Translations under genes and position numbers: made by a program
Notes under the pieces: generated by a model
Databases searched by the model: none
What the model was told of the DNA's origin: nothing
Seen by the model: the letters and a program-made list of their open reading frames with translations, nothing else
In this document: one piece after another, positions 42,806 through 57,014 of the stretch
How the letters are laid out: every line of letters begins with the position of its first letter
Numbering within the stretch: position 1 is the first letter of the stretch
Source: Laspinema olomoucense D3c
GTDB taxonomy: Bacteria; Cyanobacteriota; Cyanobacteriia; Cyanobacteriales; Laspinemataceae
DNA: 64,000 nucleotides
Assembly (NCBI RefSeq): GCF_025370725.1
Contig: NZ_JAMXEZ010000006.1
Reading direction: 5' to 3' (one strand)

Positions 42806-44599
42806 TTAGTCCAAGCCCCTATCTTCCAGCATCCCCCGGAATTTGTGTTTGCGGGCGTGGATTTGTAGCAATTCTTGACGATAAGTTTTCCAGCGGGTCC
42901 ACTGCTCTTTTTGAATATAAGCTGCCCGCACTTTTTTCAACCAGTCGATCGCCTGATTATAGAATTCAGATTTTTTGCGATCTAAAATCGATTCGGCAAG
43001 GGGTTGCGCCGTTTCAATCACCCAGTCTGGACGGTGTTTAATCGCCGCATCCATGACCCGATGCACCAACTCTATCTCATAGGAACCAAAGCCTTCTACG
43101 GCGGCGATCGCCTCATCAATTAACCCTTCACTTAGGAAAATATCTACTTTAACCTCAGTTTTGTTCCAAATTTTATGTTCCCTCAGAGAATTTAATAAAT
43201 TGGGCTGGTATTTGAACCAATTTTCACCGGCTAATTCTTTTATTTTAAAATAATCCCTCGAAGTAGGGTTATCGTAAAAAGCGGATTTTCTCGCCTCCAG
43301 TTCTACCTCAGTATTTCCTAATTCTTCCGCTAAATCAGCGGTCCAACTGGCCAGTTTATATTGGGAATCTCCCCGTAATTTTAGCCCCATTACCCCGACT
43401 TCCAGGGCTGGGCTAACTTCCCCATTACTGCGTAAGGTTTGCCCCAGGGATAAGGCTTCTTCCATTGTTTTCATTTGGGTCCGGGCGGCTTCCATTGCTT
43501 CCGTAGTTCGTCCTAAACTGCCCAACATGGTAAGATATTGTTTGATTTTGCCTTGGGCTTTAGCCAGGTTCAAATACTCCTGATATCGCTCTTGCCGATC
43601 CAGAATTTTTAAGCGAATTAATACCAAATCCGGGAAAGCATTGGGGGAAGAATTTTCCGCTATTCCTGGTTCGGATAGGGTTCCTTGGAGGGCTTGTACC
43701 AAATGCGGTTCATCCCATCCTTCGCTGAGGGATTCTAAGCTGAGGGGAAATTCGGTACTCCACTCCTCTTGGAGGATTTTTAAGCGCGATCGCCACTGTT
43801 CCACTTCACGGGAACTGAGGGATTCGCTGAGAATCGCTTCGGCGATCGCCTCATCCACTGCTGTGACAATTTCATCGGACTCAATCCCATACTGTTCCAC
43901 CCGGTCCCAATCGGCTGCACAAGCTGAGGCAATAGCTTCTAACACGATTAAAGCATTATAACTTTCCCCAATTTCTATTAATCCTTGAATATTATCAATT
44001 AAATCTAACAACTCCTCGGTTACCGGGTCATCTTCACCGTCTAAGCTTTCAAAATACCGCATCCCTTCATATAAAATATCCCGCGCCTGCTGACGAAAAG
44101 GAGCCGGATTGATAGGGGAAGGACGCTGATTATTGGGTGATTGTATTGGACTGATTATTTCATTATTTAAGGTAATGTAATAGTCAATTTCATCAATAAT
44201 TTCGGGTCTTTGTTTAACTAACTCTTGCACTAGACCTTGGATTTGGGCCCGGTTGAGCTGAGCGAGCAATTGCTCCAAAGTCGGACGCTCTTGAATAGTT
44301 TCTGGTTGCCGCATTACCACCAATAAGGTAGCGACAATATGTTCACACCATTCAGACTTATCATCAGCACAAGAACAGGTCACCGAGGTCAAACAGCCCT
44401 GCTCAAACCCCACCCGAACCCGATAGGGTTGGTCTGCATTATCCATCACTTCGGCATTGAGTAAATTGCCTCGCCGAGTCACGGAGGTTACATTGCCCGC
44501 TTCATAATCCGACTGGCCTTTGCTAAACAATGCAGGGGCAGATTTCTGGCGAATGAGGCGATCGGTCAAGTCAGGAGTTTTAGACATAAAGCAATCCAA
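42806..44599 (-). CDS. SWIM-zinc-finger-domain protein with a long alpha-helical C-terminal region; function unknown
   Basis: 597 aa. N-terminal CxC...CxH SWIM signature (TSVTCSCADDKSEWCEHIVATLLVV). Confidence 0.65.
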   Translation of the reverse strand: MDCFMSKTPDLTDRLIRQKSAPALFSKGQSDYEAGNVTSVTRRGNLLNAEVMDNADQPYRVRVGFEQGCLTSVTCSCADDKSEWCEHIVATLLVVMRQPETIQERPTLEQLLAQLNRAQIQGLVQELVKQRPEIIDEIDYYITLNNEIISPIQSPNNQRPSPINPAPFRQQARDILYEGMRYFESLDGEDDPVTEELLDLIDNIQGLIEIGESYNALIVLEAIASACAADWDRVEQYGIESDEIVTAVDEAIAEAILSESLSSREVEQWRSRLKILQEEWSTEFPLSLESLSEGWDEPHLVQALQGTLSEPGIAENSSPNAFPDLVLIRLKILDRQERYQEYLNLAKAQGKIKQYLTMLGSLGRTTEAMEAARTQMKTMEEALSLGQTLRSNGEVSPALEVGVMGLKLRGDSQYKLASWTADLAEELGNTEVELEARKSAFYDNPTSRDYFKIKELAGENWFKYQPNLLNSLREHKIWNKTEVKVDIFLSEGLIDEAIAAVEGFGSYEIELVHRVMDAAIKHRPDWVIETAQPLAESILDRKKSEFYNQAIDWLKKVRAAYIQKEQWTRWKTYRQELLQIHARKHKFRGMLEDRGLD

Positions 44600-44755: not shown

Positions 44756-47434
44756 TTATTCAATGGGTTGACACTCAGGCGATCGCAACCCGGGAAAAGA
44801 AACGCTTCCCTCGGGTATCGCCGCCATTAACTCAATTGTTCCTTGCGCATTCCGTCGCCAAGCAGTCGCTTCCTGGAGTGGGGAAGACGGATTTGTAGAG
44901 GAAGGGGTGCGACGGCGAGGAGGTTCAACGGTAACCGTTTCCCCCTCTAAATCTTGGAAAAAGTTGCGTAAATCATGCCAAATCGGTTGGGTTTGGAGGG
45001 GTTGAGTCGGGTCCGTGGGTAATCCTCCTCGTCCCGAAATGGTAAAAGAATTCTCATCGGATAAGGCACAACCCACAAAGTTATTATCCCTCGCTTGACC
45101 CAGCATTTCGGGTAATTCTACTAATCCCGTGGAGGGATTAACATCAGGGGTATTAATTGTGACACTGCCGCTAAACTCCGCCCCGAGTTCGGAGGTGGCG
45201 GTAATATCACTTTGTGGCGTGAGTTCTGTGCGAAAATTAGTCCCCAAGATGCCTTGGGCGGCGATCGCCACGCGACCCCCAAAACTGGCGCTGGAATTCG
45301 CTGTAATATCACTATTCTCTACGGCAACTAACGTATCTGTAGCGATCGCAATATTCCCTCCCGTCCCACTCCCACTGGCATTTGTGGTAATTCCCCCTTG
45401 GTTACGCAACCGAATATCCCGCGATTCAATAAAAATATTCGCTTGATCCCCTTGCACCGTTTCTGCGGCGATCGCAGCATTGTTAACCACAATCTGCCGC
45501 CCCACAATTTCAATATTCCCGGCGATTCCCGTCTTCTCACTACTGGCCGAAATGATGGCGCGATCGCCTAAAATTAACTGTCCCGTCTGCAAGCGCATCG
45601 TCCCCGCATTCCCCGTCTCTGTAGAAGCAGCAAAAATTCCTGTAGGAAATAGGATTCCAGACTCATCCGGGAAGAAAAATCCCCCCTCTATTGCCGGAAC
45701 TGCACCGGATAAAACAATCGCCTCAGTTGCCAAAATCTCCAAATTTCCCCCATCTCCAGCGCCAAATGTACCCACACTAATCTGTGCGCCATCCCGCAAA
45801 ATCAACCTCGGAGTTTCAATCCGTAAATTATCTCCATTCCCTTCTCCCAAAGTATCACTAAAAACAATCACCGGATTGCCAACGCGATCGACTCCCCCAA
45901 ATTCCATCACTTCCGTTGCCTGCAAAAGCACAGGACCGCCATCCCCCGCCTCAAAGGTGGTACTACCCACATTCGCCCCATTCAGAATCCGTAATACTGC
46001 CGTCTCAATCTCTAAACTTCCCGCATTTCCCATTGCCTCCGGGTCTACGGTACTTTCCGCCCCTGTGGGCCTTAGCACATCGTTACTGGAATTCAATCCA
46101 TCAAAAACCACCGACTCCAAGGCGCGAATTACCAGGGGTGCACCATTTCCCTGACCCCGGGTTCCCGTGATCATGCCTGCCCCATCTTTGACCAACACAG
46201 AACCCGCCTGAATCTCAATGCCGCCTGCATTTCCGACCCCTTCGGGTGCTACATCTGCCGAGGCGATGGTGATGAAATCTTCTCTCCCCTGTCCATCGAA
46301 TACCACGGACTCGCGGGCGGTAATTTGCAGTTTACCGCCATCCCCTTCCCCGGATGTGCTAGTAGAAATTATCGCACTTGTGGCGGAAAAGGTGGTAGTA
46401 TTCAAAGTGATGTTACCGCCATCGCCAACCCCGTTGGGTTGGACTTCATTGGCGATCGCACTCTCTCCAGTCAGCAGAATATTTCCCCGGGCGTCAATAT
46501 CGATATCTCCTGCTTGTACACCCGGTGTTCCTGACCCTGGCGCAATCCCCCCGCGAATCTCAGACTGCCCTGAAATCAGCAGATTCTCGACTTGAATGGC
46601 GATACTTCCACCCCCTGCACCGGCCACATCCACTCGCGCCCCATTCGTGAGATGGAGTGGCGATCGCTCGACGGTTTCCGGCAGTTTGAGTGCGTTTCCC
46701 CCTGGTAATTCCACGACTCCCGCCTCGGAGATTCCCCCCAAAGTCACAGTTCCACCGGGAACCCGTAATTGTCCCCCCTCCAGGGTAATCTCACCCCCAA
46801 CTAGGGTTAAAGTTTGATTCGGCAGCACAGTTAGAACCGAATCCCTCACAAAGATGCTCTCGGGATTGGGTCCATATTGTAACCCGATGGGGACATTAAT
46901 GCTCAAAATAGGGGATGAATCAGGATTGGTGGCGCTAAAGGCGCGATCGTCAGGAAATAACACACTGTGGGCGGTACTCCCGACAAAAGAACCGCCTAGA
47001 TTCAGGGTGGCATTCGGTCCGAAGGCAATGCCACTGGGATTAATTAAAAATAAATTCGCCCTGCCATTAGCGGCGATCGCCCCATCAATTTGGGACAGTT
47101 TGCCTCCGGTAATGCGAGTAATAATATTAGCGATAGTGGTGGAATTATTAAAAAGTGCAGCAGTTCCCGTCGGGATAGAAAATTCCTGGAAACTATGGAA
47201 CAAATTACTACCGGCAGCAGTTCCCCCCTCAATCGTGAGGGTATTGCCGTTGATCTGAACCCCCGAAGGATTCGGAAGGGTATTATCCGGTATAACCTGC
47301 GCCTGGAGGGATTTGTGTCCTAAACCTCCGTCCAAAAATAGCAAGGCACTCATCAAGCTAAAAATAGATAGATAATAATGACCCCAATACATCACGGTTT
47401 GGCAACTCCTGACTCTACTATTTTTCTTGATCAT
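44756..47434 (-). CDS. Two-partner-secretion exoprotein (TpsA) with a filamentous-hemagglutinin-type N-terminal TPS domain and a long beta-helical repeat region. Start uncertain; possibly the internal Met MYWGHYY...
   Basis: 892 aa. Signal-like N-terminus, TPS-domain motifs (NTLPNPSGVQINGNT, FHSFQEFSI, LFLINPSGIAFG), then Gly/Asn/Thr-rich beta-helix repeats. Confidence 0.75.
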   Translation of the reverse strand: MIKKNSRVRSCQTVMYWGHYYLSIFSLMSALLFLDGGLGHKSLQAQVIPDNTLPNPSGVQINGNTLTIEGGTAAGSNLFHSFQEFSIPTGTAALFNNSTTIANIITRITGGKLSQIDGAIAANGRANLFLINPSGIAFGPNATLNLGGSFVGSTAHSVLFPDDRAFSATNPDSSPILSINVPIGLQYGPNPESIFVRDSVLTVLPNQTLTLVGGEITLEGGQLRVPGGTVTLGGISEAGVVELPGGNALKLPETVERSPLHLTNGARVDVAGAGGGSIAIQVENLLISGQSEIRGGIAPGSGTPGVQAGDIDIDARGNILLTGESAIANEVQPNGVGDGGNITLNTTTFSATSAIISTSTSGEGDGGKLQITARESVVFDGQGREDFITIASADVAPEGVGNAGGIEIQAGSVLVKDGAGMITGTRGQGNGAPLVIRALESVVFDGLNSSNDVLRPTGAESTVDPEAMGNAGSLEIETAVLRILNGANVGSTTFEAGDGGPVLLQATEVMEFGGVDRVGNPVIVFSDTLGEGNGDNLRIETPRLILRDGAQISVGTFGAGDGGNLEILATEAIVLSGAVPAIEGGFFFPDESGILFPTGIFAASTETGNAGTMRLQTGQLILGDRAIISASSEKTGIAGNIEIVGRQIVVNNAAIAAETVQGDQANIFIESRDIRLRNQGGITTNASGSGTGGNIAIATDTLVAVENSDITANSSASFGGRVAIAAQGILGTNFRTELTPQSDITATSELGAEFSGSVTINTPDVNPSTGLVELPEMLGQARDNNFVGCALSDENSFTISGRGGLPTDPTQPLQTQPIWHDLRNFFQDLEGETVTVEPPRRRTPSSTNPSSPLQEATAWRRNAQGTIELMAAIPEGSVSFPGLRSPECQPIE

Positions 47435-47808: not shown

Positions 47809-49065
47809 TTGACTGAGGTTTTAGAGTTGATGATTAACTTAACCCATATTCTCACCCTCCTATCCATCGTGAGTCTGATCGGGGTCGCCAGTTGTACCGC
47901 CCCCTCCGGCGCATTGCTAGAAAATAGCACCACCGGACCCGGAAACCGGCCCCAGGAACAGGCCCAAGGGGTTTCCGCCCCCAGTGGCGAGGCCGCTTGC
48001 ATCCTGGTAGAAAATGGGTTTGGTCCTCAAGGGCAAGTCAATGTTCGGGCAGAAGAGGTGGTAAATGGGCTCGATGTTCCCTGGGGGATTGGGTTTTTGC
48101 CCAATGGGGATATGCTGGTAACGGAACGACCCGGACGGGTGCGATTGGTCCAAAACGGTCAACTGCGGCCCGAAGCAATCGCCAATATTACCGTTACGGC
48201 GCGGGGTGAGGGGGGACTGCTGGGAATTGCCATCCATCCGGATTTTGCCACTAATCGATTCTTTTATATTTATTATACTGCCGATACGACCAATGACTCA
48301 TCAGTCAACCGGGTTGAACGATGGCAACTTGCCGCAGATGGGTTAAATGCCAGTCGCGATCGCGTGATATTGGACAATATTCCCGTCGCACAATACCACA
48401 ATGGCGGACGGATTCGCTTTGGACCCGATGGAATGCTGTATATTGGCACAGGAGATGCCCGCGAACCCGACTTATCCCAAGATGTCAGCAGTCTCGCCGG
48501 TAAAATTCTCCGGGTCACCCCCGAGGGCGATGTACCCCCGGATAATCCATTTCCGGGTAATCCGGTCTATATTCTGGGTATTCGCAATACTCAAGGATTT
48601 GATTGGGTGAATGAGACAACGTTGCAAGTCACGGATCATGGACCCAGTGGGGAATTAGGCAGACGAGGCCATGATAAACTGAGTGTCGCACAAGCGGGGG
48701 ATAATCTGGGGTGGCCGACCCTGGAACGCTGTGAATCACAGACGGGATTAGTCACCCCTTCTCTCGTCTGGCGAGAGGCATTACCTCCGGGAGGTGCGGC
48801 TATTTATACAGGAACGGCGATTCCGGAATGGCAAGGGAATTTAATCATTGCTTCTCTGCGATCGGAACATTTGCAGCGGGTGGTTTTTGACCCGCAATCT
48901 CCCCAACAAGTGCAACAGCATGAAGTGTATTTGCAAGGGGAGTACGGACGACTCCGAGAGGCGATAATTGGACCCGATGGTGAACTTTATGTCACCACCA
49001 GCAATTGTGATGGTCGCGGCGGTTGTCCCTCAGATGGGGATAAAATTCTTCGGATCACTCGCTAA
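47809..49065 (+). CDS. PQQ-dependent soluble aldose sugar dehydrogenase (YliI/Asd-like beta-propeller), lipoprotein-type signal
   Basis: 418 aa. Signal peptide with a lipobox-like LIGVASC, and motifs PWGIGFLPNGDMLVTERPGRVRLV and HNGGRIRFGPDGMLYIGTGD. Confidence 0.75.
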   Translation: MTEVLELMINLTHILTLLSIVSLIGVASCTAPSGALLENSTTGPGNRPQEQAQGVSAPSGEAACILVENGFGPQGQVNVRAEEVVNGLDVPWGIGFLPNGDMLVTERPGRVRLVQNGQLRPEAIANITVTARGEGGLLGIAIHPDFATNRFFYIYYTADTTNDSSVNRVERWQLAADGLNASRDRVILDNIPVAQYHNGGRIRFGPDGMLYIGTGDAREPDLSQDVSSLAGKILRVTPEGDVPPDNPFPGNPVYILGIRNTQGFDWVNETTLQVTDHGPSGELGRRGHDKLSVAQAGDNLGWPTLERCESQTGLVTPSLVWREALPPGGAAIYTGTAIPEWQGNLIIASLRSEHLQRVVFDPQSPQQVQQHEVYLQGEYGRLREAIIGPDGELYVTTSNCDGRGGCPSDGDKILRITR

Positions 49066-49102
49066 AGTTTAATCAGATTCATCAATTAGAGATTCTATTA
49101 CC

Positions 49103-49870
49103 ATGACACATAAGAAAAAATGGCGTTTTGGTTCAGTTTTGATGGGATTTATAGCTGTATTTCTGCTAATTGCTTGTCAGGGAATGAGCCAAACAAACCT
49201 GTCTCAAACTCCACCAACGACCACCACTCCTGGAAACGAAGTGAGGGCTTCTCCGGCTGAATTACCCCCATTGCCTTACCCCTATAATGCCCTAGAACCC
49301 CATATTGATGCTCAGACGATGGAGTTACATCATGATAAGCATCATGCCAGTTACGTTAGTAATTTAAACAAGGCATTAGAAAATAATTCCAATTTGCAAA
49401 ACCAAAGCGTTGAGGCATTAATTCGCAATTTAAATCAGGTCCCAGAAAATATCCGCACAGCCGTTAGAAATAATGGCGGAGGTCACGTCAATCATTCCAT
49501 GTTTTGGGAAATTATGAGTCCCAATGGCGGGGGAGAACCCACCGGCGCGATCGCTCAAGCCATTAACGAAACTTTTGGCAGTTTTAAGACCTTCCAAGAG
49601 CAATTTAATCAAGCAGGAACCAGTCAATTTGGCAGTGGGTGGGTTTGGTTAGTTCGCAATGCTCAAGGCCAACTAGAAATTACCAGTACCCCGAATCAAG
49701 ATAGTCCCCTCATGAATGGACAATATCCCATCATGGGGAATGATGTCTGGGAACACGCCTATTACTTGAACTACCAAAATCAGCGGGGGGAATATTTAAA
49801 AAATTGGTGGAATGTCGTCAATTGGGAAGAAGTGAACCGACGCTTTGAACGCGCTTCTCAAGCTAGTTAA
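49103..49870 (+). CDS. sodA: Fe/Mn-family superoxide dismutase with an N-terminal membrane anchor/signal (likely MnSOD)
   Basis: 255 aa. N-terminal hydrophobic segment then an SOD fold: [44 protein letters not shown]. The anchored N-terminus resembles cyanobacterial membrane-bound MnSOD. Confidence 0.8.
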
Positions 49871-50041
49871 TTCCTTAACCCCCTCTCTCTCAAACCCAAG
49901 GATTTTAACGGTTGTGTTAGCAACTCGATAGAGTGGGTCAGTAATTTTAAAACCTAACACATCCATTCCATTCCAGCGGTTCAGTGGTAATGCGCTGAAC
50001 CCTCATCCGGTTCCCTCGTTTATAACTTACCTAATTTTAAC

Positions 50042-52213
50042 ATGAAAGTCACTGTAGAACCTCCTTTTTTAACCATTAATCATGGCAGCATATTTATGGT
50101 GTCCGAACTGGACGGACAAATTCAATGCGACAAGTTTCAAGGAATTTTTGCTGATGATACCCGGTTTTTAAGTGAATATGCCTGTTTTATAGACAATACG
50201 TCCTGGATGCGGCTCACCTCGTCAGTCACGCGCTATTACGCCAGCAAAATTTATTTAACTAATCCCGCCATTTCCAGCCAAAATGGAGAAATTGCTAAAG
50301 GCGCGCTATCCTTAACCATCGCTCGGACTGCCGAACATGGAATTCATGAAGACCTAGATATTACCAATCATAGCCTCAAAGCCGTAAAGTTTCATTTGGA
50401 TTTAGAGATTAATTCCGACTTTGCGGATATTTTTGAAGTCCAATCCGGGGAATTCGTGCGCCGAGGTCAAATTGAAACCGACTGGGATAAAAAAGAGTAT
50501 AAACTTCGCCATACCTATAATAATGGAGATTTTTATCGATGCATGATCGCCCATTGGGATAACCTGACATCACCCCCGCATTATGCGAATGGTCGAGTTA
50601 CCTTTCAAATTGAATTAGAAGCGGGTGCAAGTTGGCACGCTTGCTGTTGCTATACCCTGATTGATAACGAACACTGCCACAAACCCATTTCTTTGTGCTA
50701 TGACGAAGCCATTAAATCCGATGTAAATACCGAATTGCAACAGTTGCAGCGGCAGTGGCAGGATGTCTGCACAACGATCGCCACCTCAAACGAGGATCTC
50801 AAGCGACTGTACTGCCAGAGTCTCGAAGACATGAGTGCGATGCGCCTCTATGACTACGATATGGCTCCCGATGTGTGGCTACCCGCAGCAGGAGTTCCCA
50901 AATATGTGGCGCTATTTGGTCGCGATAGCTTAACTGCCAGCTTGCAAAATCAGATTATTCATCCCGGGTTTGCCCGAGGTGCACTCCAAAAATTAGGGCA
51001 GTTTCAAGCGAAGGAATATAGTGACTGGCAGGATGCACAACCGGGAAAAATCCTCCATGAACTGCGTCAGGGGGAGTTGGTTTACTTGAAAAAAAGTCCG
51101 CGATCGCCTTATTATGGGGCTGCCGATACCACCCCTCTCTATACAATTGTCCTCCACGAAACTTGGAAATGGTTAGGGGATGACTCTCTCTTAAAAAATT
51201 ACCGCGATGTCGCCCTCCGCTGTTTGGACTGGATCGATCGCTATGGTGATCTGGACAAAGATGGCTTCCAGGAATATCAAGTGCGCTCAGAAAAAGGCAT
51301 CGAAAACCAATGCTGGAAAGACTCCGGAGATTCAATCGTCTATCCCGATGGATCACAAGTCAAATCCCCAAAAGCCCTGTGCGAACTCCAAGGCTATGTC
51401 TTTGATGCTTGGATGCGAATGGCAGAAGTCTTTGAGGCACTCGGTGAGAAGGATAGCGCCACCGAATTACAAGGTAAAGCCGAAAAACTGCGCGTGCAAT
51501 TTGAAGAACGCTTTTGGTGTGAAGACTTGGGATTTTATGCCTTAACCCTAGATCCAGATAAACAGCCGGTAGGCTCGATCGCCTCAAATCCGGGTCATTG
51601 CCTCTGGAGTGGCATCGTCAGCCCAGAACGCGCTCAACGGGTGGTTAAACGGCTGCTAGAACCCGATATGTCCAGTGGTTGGGGAATTCGCACCTTGTCC
51701 TCAAATCATCCCTCTTTTAACCCCTTTTCCTATCATCTCGGGTCCGTCTGGCCCCATGATAACGGCATCATTGCCCTCGGCTTCAAACGCTATGGCTCCC
51801 ATGAAGCCGTTGCAAGCGTAGCAGCGGATATTTTCGAGACAGCCAGCCATTTCGCCTGCTATCAGATTCCCGAAGTCTATGCCGGAACAAAGCGCCAGAT
51901 AGGAGCATTTCCCGTCCCCTATATTGAAGCAAATATACCCCAAGCTTGGGCCGCCGGTTCCGTCTTTCACCTAATCCAGGCCCTATTGGGATTACAAGCG
52001 AATGCACCCCACGGCTGCTTATATGTTGATCCCTATTTGCCCGATTGGTTACCGGACTTGACCCTGTGCGGTTTAGAGGTGGGAGATTCCTCCATAGACT
52101 TACGGTTTTGGCGCGAAGGCGATCGCACTTGCTGGGATGCCTCGGTCCGTAGTGGCACCATTTCGGTCCAGCAAAAAGCATGGCAACCTTGGGCGATCCC
52201 TGTATCGGTATAG
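50042..52213 (+). CDS. Amylo-alpha-1,6-glucosidase / glycogen-debranching-enzyme-family protein (GDE_N plus GDE_C six-hairpin glycosidase)
   Basis: 723 aa. N-terminal motif typical of the cyanobacterial family (LTINHGSIFMVSELDGQI...GIFADDTRFLS) and a C-terminal (alpha/alpha)6 region. Confidence 0.7.
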   Translation: MKVTVEPPFLTINHGSIFMVSELDGQIQCDKFQGIFADDTRFLSEYACFIDNTSWMRLTSSVTRYYASKIYLTNPAISSQNGEIAKGALSLTIARTAEHGIHEDLDITNHSLKAVKFHLDLEINSDFADIFEVQSGEFVRRGQIETDWDKKEYKLRHTYNNGDFYRCMIAHWDNLTSPPHYANGRVTFQIELEAGASWHACCCYTLIDNEHCHKPISLCYDEAIKSDVNTELQQLQRQWQDVCTTIATSNEDLKRLYCQSLEDMSAMRLYDYDMAPDVWLPAAGVPKYVALFGRDSLTASLQNQIIHPGFARGALQKLGQFQAKEYSDWQDAQPGKILHELRQGELVYLKKSPRSPYYGAADTTPLYTIVLHETWKWLGDDSLLKNYRDVALRCLDWIDRYGDLDKDGFQEYQVRSEKGIENQCWKDSGDSIVYPDGSQVKSPKALCELQGYVFDAWMRMAEVFEALGEKDSATELQGKAEKLRVQFEERFWCEDLGFYALTLDPDKQPVGSIASNPGHCLWSGIVSPERAQRVVKRLLEPDMSSGWGIRTLSSNHPSFNPFSYHLGSVWPHDNGIIALGFKRYGSHEAVASVAADIFETASHFACYQIPEVYAGTKRQIGAFPVPYIEANIPQAWAAGSVFHLIQALLGLQANAPHGCLYVDPYLPDWLPDLTLCGLEVGDSSIDLRFWREGDRTCWDASVRSGTISVQQKAWQPWAIPVSV

Positions 52214-52352
52214 TCATCCCAACTCCTAAGCTAGATCAACCCCAGGCGGAAAACCTGTGGGTTGATTAGCTATCTTAATCGTCTCTGTCCAGTTCTAAAA
52301 CTTAGTATAAAATATCGCCCTTGAAGTGCGCCCATCCTCAATTAATCGCACT

Positions 52353-52991
52353 TTACAGAATTTCTTCACCGCCACATAACGACAAAATTGTATTAATAAA
52401 AGCCTTGAGTTCTGAACAAACCTCGATAGACTCCATCAAATCGTTTTCCTCTAAAATCTTTAAACCATCCCGAGTTTTACTATAACTTCTGGGGGATTTG
52501 CCTTGCTCAAAAATTTCTTGAATATGTTTCGAGGGCGGTTTCTGATGATTCACTTTCTCCGGATTGCCGCTAGGAACAGATTTATTATGTTTGGCTAACT
52601 TTTGAATGGTCGGCCAAAACAGTAACAGCCATGCCTCAAAATCATGTTGTGCAGCGTGGGGATAAAAGTTCGGATTGTTTCCTACCCATTCTTTCATTTT
52701 TTGTTTAGCATCGGCTGCATTTTTAAAATCCTCGGTTCCAGTATAAACGTCGGTTAAGGCAATCACTGCATCATAAGCATCCTTGCCACTCAGCAGCTTT
52801 TCTACGTCACTTTTAAGTTTGTCTTTTTTCGGAATCCGTCCATGATAAGGTTTTGGCTGTAATTTAGGCATTTTTCCGGGTAAACGGGAATTCAGAAAGC
52901 GCCGCAAACTCGGTATCAAGGCTTTTTCAGTTGCGCCTTCAACTAAAATAGCAATTTTCACGATCGCCCTCCGATGATATTCATCGCCCAC
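52353..52991 (-). CDS. DUF4276/RloB-like Toprim-domain protein (putative nuclease partner of the upstream ATPase)
   Basis: 212 aa. Toprim-like signature: conserved Glu in IAILVEGATE near the N-terminus and an Asp cluster DAYDAVIALTDVY. Its start overlaps the ATPase gene end by 34 nt. Confidence 0.6.
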   Translation of the reverse strand: MGDEYHRRAIVKIAILVEGATEKALIPSLRRFLNSRLPGKMPKLQPKPYHGRIPKKDKLKSDVEKLLSGKDAYDAVIALTDVYTGTEDFKNAADAKQKMKEWVGNNPNFYPHAAQHDFEAWLLLFWPTIQKLAKHNKSVPSGNPEKVNHQKPPSKHIQEIFEQGKSPRSYSKTRDGLKILEENDLMESIEVCSELKAFINTILSLCGGEEIL

Positions 52992-54103
52992 AGTTCATCT
53001 AAACTATACTCTTCCAACCATTTCTCTAAATCTAAAGAATCCGCCCAAGTCATGGTTGTGAAACCCTCTTCATCTGCATCGCATACCAGCACTTCGTCTG
53101 GTTGCAAAAATCGGATCAGGCGATCAGAATGGGTGGCAACAATCAGTTGAGTTCGTTTCGATGCCTCTCGCATCACATCCACCAGCAATCGCAACAATTC
53201 CGGATGCAAGCTGACTTCCGGTTCATCGATAAGCGTTACAGCAGTTAAATTCGGACTTTGCAGTAGGGTGACTAACCACAAAAACCGCACCGTCCCCTCG
53301 GAAAGTTGATGCATATAAAGGGGATGCGAAAAATTTTTCTCCTTCCAAGTCAATGCCAATGTGCCTGCTGCTACTGGGGGAAAACTCAAGCGTTCAAAAC
53401 TAGGAAAGGCAGCAGACAAAGTATCGCTTATCAGTTCAAATCGATCCGGGTCTGTTTCCCGTAAATTATAAAGGCAGGAAACTAAATCTTCCCCCCGATT
53501 TCCGGGTAAAGTTGCGGGACGCATCGCTTGCGGTAATCGCACGGGACTGGTAGGCGATAAATTCAATTCCCAAGCTCGATAAAAGCTACAGGAGGCTAAT
53601 TGCTTCCGCACCGCTTCCGCTTCTTGGTACATTTTAGGAACTTGTGAAAGGGAGGTTTCTAACGGATTATGTTCCCAATTTGGACGGACCGGAACCTGAT
53701 TGTTATTAGCAAAATATTGAACATTTAAACCGCTGGAATTTATGTAAGTAAACAACAAAGGCGATCTAGTAAGAGATTCCTGCTCTATTTCATAAAATTG
53801 TTGGCCTTTAATGTCTAATTTTAAAAAATAGTTAAACTGTCCATATTTTTCTAAAAAAACTGATGGAACCACGCGAAAACTATCAGCCTGATCTCGCGTC
53901 AATATATCACCCAGCCCCCCAAATTCAGAAATTTTTGACTGTAACTGACCTTTTGCAGATTCTGATAAAAGGGAGAACATTTCCAAAAAAGATGTCTTCC
54001 CCACTCCGTTGGCCCCGATGATGACCGTTAAAGGTCTCATCTCGACTTGGACTGAGCGTAAGCGACGGAAACCGTAAATCTCTATTTTTTCAAAACCATT
54101 CAT
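52958..54103 (-). CDS. ABC-type AAA_21 family ATPase (OLD/RloA/AbiLi-like)
   Basis: 381 aa. Walker A GANGVGKTS at the N-terminus, ABC-signature/Walker B/D-loop near the C-terminus (LTLIDEPEVSLHPEL), H-loop ATHSD. Confidence 0.75.
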   Translation of the reverse strand: MNGFEKIEIYGFRRLRSVQVEMRPLTVIIGANGVGKTSFLEMFSLLSESAKGQLQSKISEFGGLGDILTRDQADSFRVVPSVFLEKYGQFNYFLKLDIKGQQFYEIEQESLTRSPLLFTYINSSGLNVQYFANNNQVPVRPNWEHNPLETSLSQVPKMYQEAEAVRKQLASCSFYRAWELNLSPTSPVRLPQAMRPATLPGNRGEDLVSCLYNLRETDPDRFELISDTLSAAFPSFERLSFPPVAAGTLALTWKEKNFSHPLYMHQLSEGTVRFLWLVTLLQSPNLTAVTLIDEPEVSLHPELLRLLVDVMREASKRTQLIVATHSDRLIRFLQPDEVLVCDADEEGFTTMTWADSLDLEKWLEEYSLDELWAMNIIGGRS

Positions 54104-54383
54104 AATAGGTTGGTTAGTGGGTCATGTTTAAGATCCCTTTTACATTTGCAAAATCTTACCACATTCATCGGGTTGTTGTAAAATTTTTATGTTTTTGTAA
54201 AGAGTGGCAGGAGGTTGACAAAATTTGGTCCGATTAATTTAGATGGTTAACCCCTTGATTTAGGCCCGATCGCCCCCTCCCTTACTATCTCCTCAATTCT
54301 CCCATACTGAATACCAAATCTCTGTACCTCTCTAGTGAAAATTCACTCTACAATTATAAGAAACCTATAGAACGATCGCAGAA

Positions 54384-55787
54384 ATGTTTCAAGCAACCCG
54401 CCGACGGTTAGCGATTTGGTATGCGGCACTCACAGCAGTGTTGCTGCTGGTGTTTGCTACGGGATTTTATGTGTATGTGCGGAGTACCTTAATCGATCGC
54501 ATTGATGACACCCTCAAGCACGTTGTGGAAGTGGTGGAACGCTCGCTGGCGATCGATGAAAACCCCAACACCGGCCAATATACCGTAAATGTTGTCGCCA
54601 GTTTCCGCAACAATGCTAAAACCGTCGAAGATGACCATATCGATTTAGAATGGTTTAGTCCCACTGGGGAATTATTGTGGTCTACCCTTTGGGAACCTTT
54701 AAAAATTCCCCTGCACCCGAAAAAAAATGGGGAAACGGTACAACTGTCGGGAGGACAACTCCTGCGCCAATTCACCGATCGCGTAGAAATTGGACGGCAA
54801 GTGGTAGGATATTTGCGAGTCAGTCATCCCTGGTTTGAAGTGACCAAACCGATTCGGCAATTAATTATTGATTTAAGTTTGGGAACCTCCCTCATGGCAA
54901 TTGCCATTAGTGCGATCGCCTGGTTACTGTCAGGATTAGCCATGAAACCTGTGCGGGATTCTTACCAGCGTCTCAAACAGTTTACCTCCGATGCCTCCCA
55001 TGAACTCAGAAACCCGATCGCCACGATTCAAACAAATGTGCAAGTAGCCCTTGCGGACCCGGAATTAGATTCACCAATCCATCGCCAGCAATTACAGCTA
55101 GTCGAACGCTTGACGCGCCGTATGGGACGATTGGTGGATGATTTGCTCTTTTTAGCGCGACAAGATAGCGGCATAGTGAAAGTGAGGAAACAACCTGTGC
55201 CAATGGATGCCTTATTGATGGAAGTAATGGAGGAACAAGAGGCGATCGCCGCCGAAAAAGGCATTGAATTAGTATTAGAAATTATTGATCCGCCCGATAG
55301 GGGCAATCACGCCCTCTCCCCCCTTATGGATCCAGAAACTGAACCGGGACTGGATTTTACCATCCCCGGAGATTGGGACCAACTGGCGCGACTGTTTACG
55401 AATTTAGTCAGTAATGGATTGCAATACACCGCGAAAGGGGGCCAAATTGCCATCACCTTAGAATGTAGCGGGGTGAGCAATCGCCCGAGTGCCAATAGCG
55501 GTGTCCAAGTTACGGTGAAAGATAGCGGAATCGGCATTCCGGCAGAGTCGGTGCCTCATATTTTTGATCGCTTTTATCGAGTGGACCCGGCGCGGAGTCA
55601 TGAACCTCACCAGTCGCCGGAATGGGGTTCTACGGGGTCTGGATTGGGACTGGCGATCGTCCGGGCGATCGTGGAAAATCATCACGGTTGGATTCGGGTA
55701 GACAGTCAGCTTAATCTCGGCACTACCGTTAGCGTTATCCTTCCGCTCTCCAAACCCGACCCAGAAAAACCGCATCCCGAGGCATAA
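54384..55787 (+). CDS. Membrane sensor histidine kinase (2 TM, periplasmic loop, HAMP, HisKA, HATPase_c)
   Basis: 467 aa. H-box TSDASHELRNPIATI, N-box LVSNGLQYT, G-boxes DSGIGI and GLGLAIV. Confidence 0.85.
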   Translation: MFQATRRRLAIWYAALTAVLLLVFATGFYVYVRSTLIDRIDDTLKHVVEVVERSLAIDENPNTGQYTVNVVASFRNNAKTVEDDHIDLEWFSPTGELLWSTLWEPLKIPLHPKKNGETVQLSGGQLLRQFTDRVEIGRQVVGYLRVSHPWFEVTKPIRQLIIDLSLGTSLMAIAISAIAWLLSGLAMKPVRDSYQRLKQFTSDASHELRNPIATIQTNVQVALADPELDSPIHRQQLQLVERLTRRMGRLVDDLLFLARQDSGIVKVRKQPVPMDALLMEVMEEQEAIAAEKGIELVLEIIDPPDRGNHALSPLMDPETEPGLDFTIPGDWDQLARLFTNLVSNGLQYTAKGGQIAITLECSGVSNRPSANSGVQVTVKDSGIGIPAESVPHIFDRFYRVDPARSHEPHQSPEWGSTGSGLGLAIVRAIVENHHGWIRVDSQLNLGTTVSVILPLSKPDPEKPHPEA

Positions 55788-55852
55788 AATAGCAAAGGAC
55801 AGAGCGAATCTGAAGGATATAATCGCTCTGATTCCCCTGCGATGTTTCTTTG

Positions 55853-56266
55853 CTAAACTTCGATTTGTGACTGCCCCGTGCAGATTGCACAGGAGCATCC
55901 CAGTGCATCTCGGATCGGGTCACTTCCGGATCCCTGAGCAATTAAAGCCCCCTGATGGCGGATTTCCGGACTCATCCATACCGATGCTAAGTTGCCGGAA
56001 ACTTGAGACAGCAGACTCGGATGTAGGGGAATGGCGATCGCCCCGGATGGAGCAATTTGCGTCACCTGAGCCACAGGTTGGCTCAGATTAGCCATCCCCA
56101 AGAAAGGTTGCGCCGCAGCGAGGATGGAAGTAATCGCTAACGTTAACGCTAAACTGAGGGCCGGAGCAAGTTTAAATCGAATCATAAGTTCTGCTTGTGC
56201 AAGTGGAGTGTCTTGAGTTGGGATGATGTTTAAGCTGGCCATTTGTTCCTTCCACGATAGCATCAA
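55853..56266 (-). CDS. Hypothetical small protein with a signal-peptide-like segment (weak call)
   Basis: 137-aa ORF convergent with the kinase gene. It has a hydrophobic stretch (LAPALSLALTLAITSILAAAQP) but no recognisable domain. Confidence 0.25.
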   Translation of the reverse strand: MMLSWKEQMASLNIIPTQDTPLAQAELMIRFKLAPALSLALTLAITSILAAAQPFLGMANLSQPVAQVTQIAPSGAIAIPLHPSLLSQVSGNLASVWMSPEIRHQGALIAQGSGSDPIRDALGCSCAICTGQSQIEV

Positions 56267-56354
56267 ACCCTCCGGAGTGACTACCCTGTACCTGCCTCTC
56301 TATGTGGCCCGGATCCCCCTTGCCCCGTTGAATATTTAGCCGTTGCCACCCCGG

Positions 56355-57014
56355 TTATCTTGGACGATAAGATCCAGGAATTTTTTTGGCCAACCCTTGG
56401 GCAAATTCTTTCTCGAACTCAAAGGCTTCTACTTCTAATTTATTATTTCTGTAGATTTCTCCGGCTTTTTTATATTCTTTAAAATAGTGATAGCCAAAAT
56501 TTCCTAAGCTGCCGAGTTGTTCGTGCTGCTGGCAGTGGATTAGTTCGTGGGAGAGCAGGACCAGTTGCTCGAAGTCCTGTTCTTTCATCTCCTTCTTAAT
56601 ATAAATGGTGTTTCCATAAACTTGAGCGTTGGATTCACCCACATTAATTTTGAAACTTGCCGCTACCCAATCTTCCATTAAAGTAGCATTATAAACCACT
56701 TTCACCCGATCCACTAAATCGCCAAAATGGGGGCGTAAATATTGTTTTTGAGTCTCAGTTAAAGCTTGCGGTTCAGCATTATTGGAACTCATCACTTCTG
56801 CGGCTGCTTGATAAGCCACCGCTCCAAATTGACCCCAAGCTTCTTCAGGCATTTCTTTAGGAACTTGTCCCCGGCAAATCTGGCCTCCGAGGGTTTGGGC
56901 ATCTGGGCAAGTGTGGCTTTCTGGATTAATCATGGGATTACTGAAGGCTCCGAAACCCACGGTTACGAATCCCAGACAAGCACCAATTAAGTTGACTTTA
57001 CGGGAGGTGAGCAT
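56355..57014 (-). CDS. Secreted DUF4157-like zinc-metallopeptidase-motif protein
   Basis: 219 aa. N-terminal signal/TM and HExxH at SHELIHCQQHEQ with conserved surrounding hydrophobics, as in the DUF4157 family. Confidence 0.55.
   Translation of the reverse strand: MLTSRKVNLIGACLGFVTVGFGAFSNPMINPESHTCPDAQTLGGQICRGQVPKEMPEEAWGQFGAVAYQAAAEVMSSNNAEPQALTETQKQYLRPHFGDLVDRVKVVYNATLMEDWVAASFKINVGESNAQVYGNTIYIKKEMKEQDFEQLVLLSHELIHCQQHEQLGSLGNFGYHYFKEYKKAGEIYRNNKLEVEAFEFEKEFAQGLAKKIPGSYRPR

Follow-up and report, generated by a model that had tools for sequence, protein, structure and literature searches.

Two adjacent genes on the minus strand of a cyanobacterial contig, one for an ABC-type ATPase and one for a small protein of the family DUF4276, raise the question of whether they form an antiphage module and, if so, of which kind. 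They lie in a stretch of 64,000 nucleotides from Laspinema olomoucense D3c (contig NZ_JAMXEZ010000006.1), here termed the window. A preliminary description of the window had read the pair as an OLD-like ATPase and a Toprim protein split into two polypeptides, akin to AbiL or RloA-RloB and possibly a novel variant of such defence loci. The split-OLD, putatively antiphage architecture is borne out by the analysis reported here, with an AAA_21 ATPase, a separate Toprim-like protein and a predicted fold of the latter that matches OLD nucleases best. The novelty is not, since this architecture is that of the catalogued candidate system HEC-01: judged from its sequence, the pair is a stand-alone cyanobacterial member of that family and not a new kind of system. 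We consider it fairly probable that the two genes make up a self-contained operon of HEC-01 type, in which an ABC ATPase serves as sensor or regulator of a separately encoded OLD-type Toprim nuclease effector.

Assignment of the gene pair to HEC-01

Among the PADLOC models, the ATPase matched HEC-01A best (PDLC04175; E 2.5e-72, 242 bits, residues 4-380 of 381), with nine other HEC-01A models also matching, and the DUF4276 protein matched HEC-01B best (PDLC04188; E 8.4e-19, 66 bits, residues 7-205 of the longest, 212-residue form), together with five other HEC-01B models. HEC-01 (Hma-embedded candidate 1; PADLOC-DB v2; Payne et al.) is described as a TOPRIM protein partnered by an ABC ATPase, found inside Hma systems, and its HEC-01B nuclease shares the OLD metal site (10.1101/2024.01.29.577857). 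The Laspinema genes are likewise adjacent and co-oriented, on the same strand with a 4-nt overlap, an arrangement kept in 20 related loci.

Other models gave weaker matches in PADLOC (AbiLi, 3e-26; mad3, 1.4e-21; AbiLii, 5.9e-4). RloB (PF13707) scored 21.2 bits on the DUF4276 protein, below its cut-off of 31.5, and NCBIfam MAD3 scored 89.1 bits on the ATPase against a cut-off of 420. Neither Pfam nor PADLOC matched DUF4435 or AriB to the pair at E<=1, and the PADLOC match to AriA (PDLC02980) covers the same residues, with the same model length, as the generic AAA_21 model of Pfam. We assign the pair to HEC-01 because the HEC-01A and HEC-01B models match best and the other assignments fail. The earlier likening to AbiL and RloA-RloB accordingly holds as a resemblance and not as membership, given the RloB score below cut-off and the poor AbiLii match.

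An ABC-type ATPase with intact motifs

Pfam places the larger protein in AAA_21 (136.6 bits against a cut-off of 27; E 2.4e-39), with further families above cut-off in AAA_15 (E 7.4e-23), SMC_N (42.7 bits; cut-off 40) and ABC_tran (25.9; cut-off 25). It is 100% identical to the protein that NCBI lists as "AAA family ATPase [Laspinema olomoucense]", a match that places the window in a Laspinema strain (Oscillatoriales). Its motifs comprise a Walker A at G30-S38 (GANGVGKTS, with K36), a signature-like L267-S-E-G270, a Walker B at I292-D-E-P-E296, a D-loop at S298-L-H-P301 and an H-loop at T324-H-S326. The residues of all five are invariant or nearly so among 35 homologues. The ABC-type AAA_21 identity first proposed from GANGVGKTS (aa 30-38) and from the Walker B/D-loop segment LIDEPEVSLHPEL (aa 291-303) is thus upheld. 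The solved ATPases of PtuA, OLD and GajA are distant from it by sequence (E about 1e-6).

A DUF4276 partner with a predicted OLD-like Toprim fold

Residues of this protein are numbered below in its 202-aa form. The Toprim/DUF4276 affinity supposed for the second open reading frame (ORF) was confirmed by Pfam, which matched it to DUF4276 (PF14103) at 110.5 bits (cut-off 30.2; E 1.6e-31) over profile positions 1-191 of 192; at such profile scores chance is excluded for the AAA_21 and the DUF4276 assignments alike. DUF4276 and RloB have been classed in the Toprim superfamily, and one DUF4276 homologue, Mad4, forms part of the MADS defence system (PMC12065111).

In an alignment of 38 family representatives (30-60% identity), E8, G9, E12, D71 and C182 are invariant and T11, L69, A104, E109, W111, P134, E135, P143, Y160 and K162 nearly so. 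The Toprim-like Glu that had been read from ILVEGATE is therefore present as the invariant E8. The accompanying "Asp cluster" in IALTDVY comes down to a single, invariant Asp (D71), and because the residue at +2 from it is never Asp in these representatives, the canonical Toprim DxD is absent. The OLD-family signature of a Glu with a DxD is thus incomplete, with E8 and one conserved Asp.

The AlphaFold2 model of the protein is confident, with a predicted local distance difference test score (pLDDT) of 91.8 and a predicted template-modelling score (pTM) of 0.88. It comprises a four-stranded alpha/beta core (beta1, residues 2-8; beta2, 33-39; beta3, 65-72; beta4, 99-105), forming a predicted OLD-like Toprim domain over residues 1-123, and a C-terminal helical lobe (residues 143-195). 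The combination of Toprim fold and C-terminal helical domain that characterizes the OLD family is thus seen in the model. When the model was compared with the Protein Data Bank (PDB) by Foldseek, the top five matches were C-terminal regions of the class 2 OLD nucleases of Burkholderia pseudomallei and Xanthomonas campestris, the best being 6nk8_A (E 7.6e-5, template-modelling score 0.57, target covered almost end to end). OLD-family Toprim C-terminal regions were the best structural match by two methods. Searches of PDB sequences with two DUF4276 profiles (A1 and A2) gave nothing meaningful, so the relationship to OLD is one of predicted structure. The Pfam family OLD-like_TOPRIM (PF20469) scored 16.3 bits, below its cut-off of 23.2, with the segment around the beta1 Glu alone aligning.

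In the B. pseudomallei enzyme, metal A is bound by E400, D455 and D457 and metal B by E404, T506 and E508, and K562 of the helical domain completes the site (PMC6755086). E8 and E12 of the DUF4276 protein have the spacing (i, i+4) of E400 and E404, and D107-x-E109, after beta4, has that of T506-x-E508. By its place at the end of beta3 in the model, D71 would fit D455, and K162 in the helical lobe could be likened to K562.

The invariant C182 (window about 52416-52418) was found throughout the family members sampled, within a C-P-E-L-K motif of the helical lobe; nothing in the OLD active site as described obviously corresponds to it.

Gene boundaries and coupling

Both ORFs lie on the minus strand where they had first been placed, and all four motifs quoted for them are present. 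The length of the second and its overlap with the first needed correction. An overlap of 34 nt and a product of 212 aa apply to the longest possible ORF, which runs from the first in-frame GTG (52353..52991). Nearly all of the 41 homologues in alignment A1 start at MKIAILVEG, three having N-terminal extensions like that of the 212-aa ORF, and the nearest database proteins are of 202 aa, as gene-called in relatives. The junction reads ...GGAGGG CGATC GTGA AA..., in which a GTG start (52961-52959) overlaps the TGA stop of the ATPase gene (52960-52958). On account of the homologue N-termini, the gene calls in relatives and the GGAGGG ribosome-binding site, the gene most likely begins at GTG 52961 and encodes 202 aa, and the ten-codon extension is probably untranslated. 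The resulting 4-nt overlap, which is called in all 20 related loci examined (including those labelled L001-L012 and L034-L038), is of a kind typical of translational coupling, and the two genes are best regarded as coupled in this manner. OLD proteins are single polypeptides, but in this locus, as in all relatives, ATPase and Toprim-like protein have an ORF each, divided by a stop codon.

Dispersal outside Laspinema

Relatives of the DUF4276 protein at E<=1e-3 formed 3,467 clusters at 90% identity, and 431 clusters at 50% identity in an exhaustive library of representatives. The close relatives (62-74% identity) are mostly cyanobacterial, with some from Acidobacteria and Ca. Ozemobacter. Both genes occur together in all 20 related loci, where the flanks are unrelated between lineages and no third gene is conserved. 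At 53-74% identity the pair is found in unrelated neighbourhoods of Oscillatoriales, Nostocales, Acidobacteria and Ca. Ozemobacter, and in three lineages (L010, L034 and L038) small toxin-antitoxin (TA) cassettes (TacA/TacT, zeta, ParE) adjoin it or lie within a few kb. The divergence of the two proteins co-varies: non-cyanobacterial copies are 53-64% identical in the ATPase and 64-68% in the nuclease, and identity across cyanobacterial orders is unusually high at 69-74%. Three cyanobacteria (L017, L018 and L020) carry the orthologous GDE gene without the pair beside it. The pair is, in its distribution, a stand-alone cassette. PHROGs holds no family for the DUF4276 protein.

Evolution within Laspinema

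Each of the four further genomes sampled from the Laspinema clade, namely L. olomoucense D3b, L. palackyanum D2a, Oscillatoria sp. HE19RPO and one related metagenome-assembled genome, carries the pair at the same site. Protein identities within the clade are 89-97% for the pair and 87-99.6% for its flanks. The ratio of nonsynonymous to synonymous divergence (dN/dS) of 0.09-0.21 in both genes denotes purifying selection, and their synonymous divergence (dS) is similar to that of the flanks. Since the site is shared by all four relatives and divergence is like that of the flanks, the pair is not a recent insertion. The earlier wording, that it was "inserted" among metabolic genes, stands as far as its position between other genes is concerned and overstates the case as to any recent event. 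Its low G+C content (0.40-0.435; window, 0.48) was weighed as a sign of foreign origin, and is a weak one, because a neighbouring superoxide dismutase (SOD) gene has 0.436 and dS matches the flanks.

Along positions 47809-57014 the window forms a mosaic of identity relative to L. olomoucense D3b (L015) and L. palackyanum D2a (L013). Compared with D3b, the histidine kinase, a 219-aa protein and the gene pair are 97-99.6% identical (dS 0.04-0.07), and the GDE-like and SOD genes 92-94% (dS about 0.26-0.27), GDE being closer to L. palackyanum (96%). A breakpoint of homologous recombination between the genes for the DUF4276 protein and the GDE-like protein is suggested by this difference.

Proposed mechanism and alternative explanations

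OLD and Gabija are known for ATPase-regulated nicking and degradation of DNA. In PARIS, the Toprim nuclease AriB stays sequestered by the ATPase AriA until its release is triggered by a phage protein, upon which tRNA is cleaved. By analogy with these systems, from which complex formation, trigger, substrate (DNA or tRNA) and defence role are borrowed, the Laspinema ATPase and nuclease would be joined in one complex in which the ATPase keeps the nuclease inactive. A phage or foreign-DNA cue would alter the nucleotide state or oligomeric assembly of the ATPase, and the nuclease, then released or licensed, would cut nucleic acid at a two-metal site made of E8 and D71 (metal A), E12 and D107-x-E109 (metal B) and the helical-domain K162, so that infection might be halted, possibly at the cell's cost. 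The proposal builds on what the locus presents directly: a coupled gene pair of known families with intact catalytic motifs, a predicted OLD-like fold, a cassette-like distribution and purifying selection.

Several observations weigh against this scheme. The ATPase model, derived from a shallow alignment of 35 homologues, is of low confidence (pLDDT 53.4, pTM 0.39), and was therefore kept out of the fold search, with no claim made about insert domains. In the nuclease the Toprim DxD is missing, and the mapping onto B. pseudomallei OLD draws on how the motifs are spaced and on the fold as a whole rather than on a superposition of residues. As first described, the pair has no other defence genes around it, with no meaningful PADLOC match among ten neighbouring proteins scanned within about 15 kb. 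Relatives of the DUF4276 protein were found neither in 50,697 phage records nor, in a scan with alignment A1, in IMG/VR, and relatives in PLSDB plasmids, queried with the ATPase only, were all below 30% identity. Occupation of one fixed chromosomal site in Laspinema, with divergence like that of housekeeping flanks, is atypical of fast-turnover defence genes. Published tests of HEC-01 conflict, leaving its defence activity weakly documented: one representative, tested by the discoverers of HEC-01, gave Escherichia coli MG1655 no protection against the BASEL phages (10.1101/2024.01.29.577857), and a HEC-01 from a cold seep gave E. coli B protection against one or more of the phages T4, T5 and T7 (10.1101/2024.09.26.614923).

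Much of this would suit a chromosomal housekeeping ATPase-nuclease concerned with DNA repair, replication, chromosome maintenance or RNA processing and not with immunity, for which SbcCD/RecF-type ABC ATPases or the archaeal OLD-family protein Cran1 offer parallels. Such a role is in keeping with a position that stays constant, between one and the same pair of genes, throughout the Laspinema-clade genomes sampled, with 89-97% identity and flank-like dS, with strong purifying selection and high identity across cyanobacterial orders, and with the want of defence neighbours and of phage or close plasmid copies, as well as with the negative HEC-01 test; a precedent is an OLD-family ATPase of an archaeon that acts in the cell cycle and not in defence (PMC12796447). 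It is nevertheless an unlikely explanation, to be kept in view, since neighbourhoods that differ wholly between lineages, with TA cassettes near in three, are typical of accessory genes; the 64-68% identity to copies in Acidobacteria and Ca. Ozemobacter points to horizontal transfer; the pair is absent beside the orthologous GDE gene in three cyanobacteria; and family members reside inside Hma and MADS defence loci, with one positive defence assay reported. Because of the fixed Laspinema site, the flank-like evolution and the absence of the pair from phage and ATPase-searched plasmid records, one might also suppose that the mainly cyanobacterial subclade of HEC-01 is a domesticated split-OLD enzyme which, like archaeal Cran1, maintains cellular DNA or RNA and has no immune function, a supposition that we hold to be unlikely too, and marginally more doubtful.

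The compact, translationally coupled layout and the cassette-like spread across unrelated loci and phyla also recall a TA-like addiction cassette, in which a nuclease toxin and its ATPase antidote would persist selfishly, with no dedicated antiphage role. Classical TA modules do lie adjacent to the pair or within a few kb in the three lineages named above, AAA_21 bears in Pfam the description "putative AbiEii toxin, Type IV TA system", and PARIS, the best-studied split ATPase/Toprim pair, is formally a type II TA system (PMC13064643). PARIS, however, is both, so that TA behaviour does not preclude defence. Pure addiction is argued against by the stable vertical inheritance of the pair at a single chromosomal site that lacks mobile-element hallmarks, and the size and order of the genes (large ATPase first, small nuclease second) fit a sensor better than a simple antidote. 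We give this explanation rather little credence. Far less probable is that the pair has become detached from a larger system linked to methylation (MADS Mad3/Mad4, a type I restriction-modification (R-M) RloA/RloB accessory, or Hma) with its partners elsewhere. In the literature, MADS and type I R-M loci are linked with DUF4276 and RloB (PMC12065111), and the pair shows the weak similarity to mad3, RloB and AbiLii given above; the MAD3 score, however, is far under its cut-off, and the DUF4276 protein has no Mad4-type match in PADLOC or NCBIfam. Methyltransferase, helicase and restriction genes are absent within about 10-15 kb, here and in 20 related loci, so that context largely refutes this explanation, and the R-M setting once raised as another possible role for the pair is likewise not seen.

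A self-contained HEC-01-type ATPase-nuclease operon thus remains the interpretation that we favour. If the pair is an active defence, it would add to the split ABC-ATPase/Toprim immune modules a cyanobacterial case with a stable place in the chromosome, and a nuclease domain that looks nearest to class 2 OLD yet is devoid of the DxD would help in studying how a separate ATPase gates nucleases of OLD type. Its practical value is modest, as PADLOC recognises the architecture and NCBI annotates both genes, and the mechanism and defence role of HEC-01 are general questions of the family, not specific to the Laspinema locus.

Features of the surrounding window

The gene pair and other features of the window are listed in Table 1.

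Table 1. Coordinates of the gene pair and of neighbouring features in the window.
Feature	Position	Strand	Remarks
597-aa ORF	42806-44599	minus	partial PADLOC PDC-S62 match (E 2.5e-14, residues 11-143)
892-aa exoprotein gene	44756-47434	minus	two-partner-secretion (TPS) domain, filamentous-haemagglutinin-like; adjoins 597-aa ORF
GDE-like glycosidase gene	50042-52213	plus	convergent with DUF4276 gene
Stem-loop	52235..52266		ATCAACCCCAGG / CCTGTGGGTTGAT; 12 bp, one bulge; between convergent DUF4276 and GDE-like genes
DUF4276 gene	52353..52961	minus	202 aa from GTG 52961; HEC-01B type
Coupling junction	52958..52972	minus	GGAGGG 52972-52967, 5-nt spacer, GTGA
ATPase gene	52958..54103	minus	381 aa, ATG start; ABC-type (SMC/RecF-like), HEC-01A type
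5' extension of longest DUF4276 ORF	52962..52991	minus	10 codons, MGDEYHRRAI; 3 of 41 homologue calls extended
Divergent intergenic region	54104..54383		280 bp, ATPase gene (minus) / histidine-kinase gene (plus); presumed promoter site of pair
Histidine-kinase gene	54384-55787	plus	divergent from ATPase gene
219-aa ORF	56355-57014	minus	HELIHCQQHE motif (HExxH, zinc-metallopeptidase-like)

Further out from the pair lie genes for SOD, a glucose/sorbosone dehydrogenase and a TPS exoprotein; the window holds no paralogues of the pair, and Rfam gave no matches in 51500-55000. The divergent intergenic region is largely conserved among Laspinema relatives. Consensus scans for promoters and terminators stayed at chance level: the sigma-70-like matches on the minus strand at 54182-54153 and 54130-54102 belong to a scan that gave 6 sites against 4.6 expected. 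The stem-loop, which is the main hairpin in the fold of the 3' region (z -2.14), is kept in the Laspinema relatives L013-L016 within a spacer that varies, and may be a transcription terminator shared by the convergent genes; no U-run follows the hairpin.

A 15-nt inverted repeat (52337-52351 / 54228-54242; 87% complementary, containing ATTAAT) flanks the pair. It was rejected as a pair of mobile-element ends, being short, imperfect, AT-rich and poorly conserved in relatives, and is probably due to chance. The exoprotein gene and the adjoining 597-aa ORF probably form a two-partner-secretion pair and not a defence system. The 219-aa ORF is conserved among the Laspinema relatives; the precomputed calls show no Pfam match for it. 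In L. palackyanum (L013, 10269-11678) an extra ORF of 469 aa with an N-terminal hydrophobic segment lies between the ATPase and histidine-kinase genes; it is absent from the window and from the other relatives.

Comparison with known systems

Several known systems combine an ATPase with a Toprim-like nuclease in ways that recall the Laspinema pair. In MADS, the DUF4276 homologue Mad4 is paired with the AAA ATPase Mad3; membership was rejected on the MAD3 score and because the other mad genes and a methyltransferase are absent nearby. AbiL (AbiLi/AbiLii) and RloA/RloB likewise join an AAA_21-type ATPase to a small Toprim-like protein of the same superfamily, and were set aside since RloB and AbiLii match poorly and AbiLi far more weakly than HEC-01A. 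Gabija, or a class 2 OLD with GajB, was rejected as well: no gene for a UvrD-like helicase lies within 10 kb, and the downstream gene is the convergent GDE-like glycosidase. PARIS (the ABC ATPase AriA with the DUF4435 Toprim nuclease AriB) has the same split two-gene organization and is the best-understood mechanistic template, membership being rejected for want of a DUF4435 or AriB match.

[quoted passage not shown] The DUF4276 model superposes best on the C-terminal region of class 2 OLD, including its helical lobe, and E-x3-E and a helical-domain Lys appear common to the two. The Laspinema pair differs in being encoded as two polypeptides, in missing the second Asp of the DxD and in falling below the OLD-like_TOPRIM cut-off. 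[quoted passage not shown] The Laspinema copy differs from it in standing alone among housekeeping genes, outside any Hma system, and belongs, with its moderate HEC-01B match of 66 bits, to a highly conserved and mainly cyanobacterial subclade.

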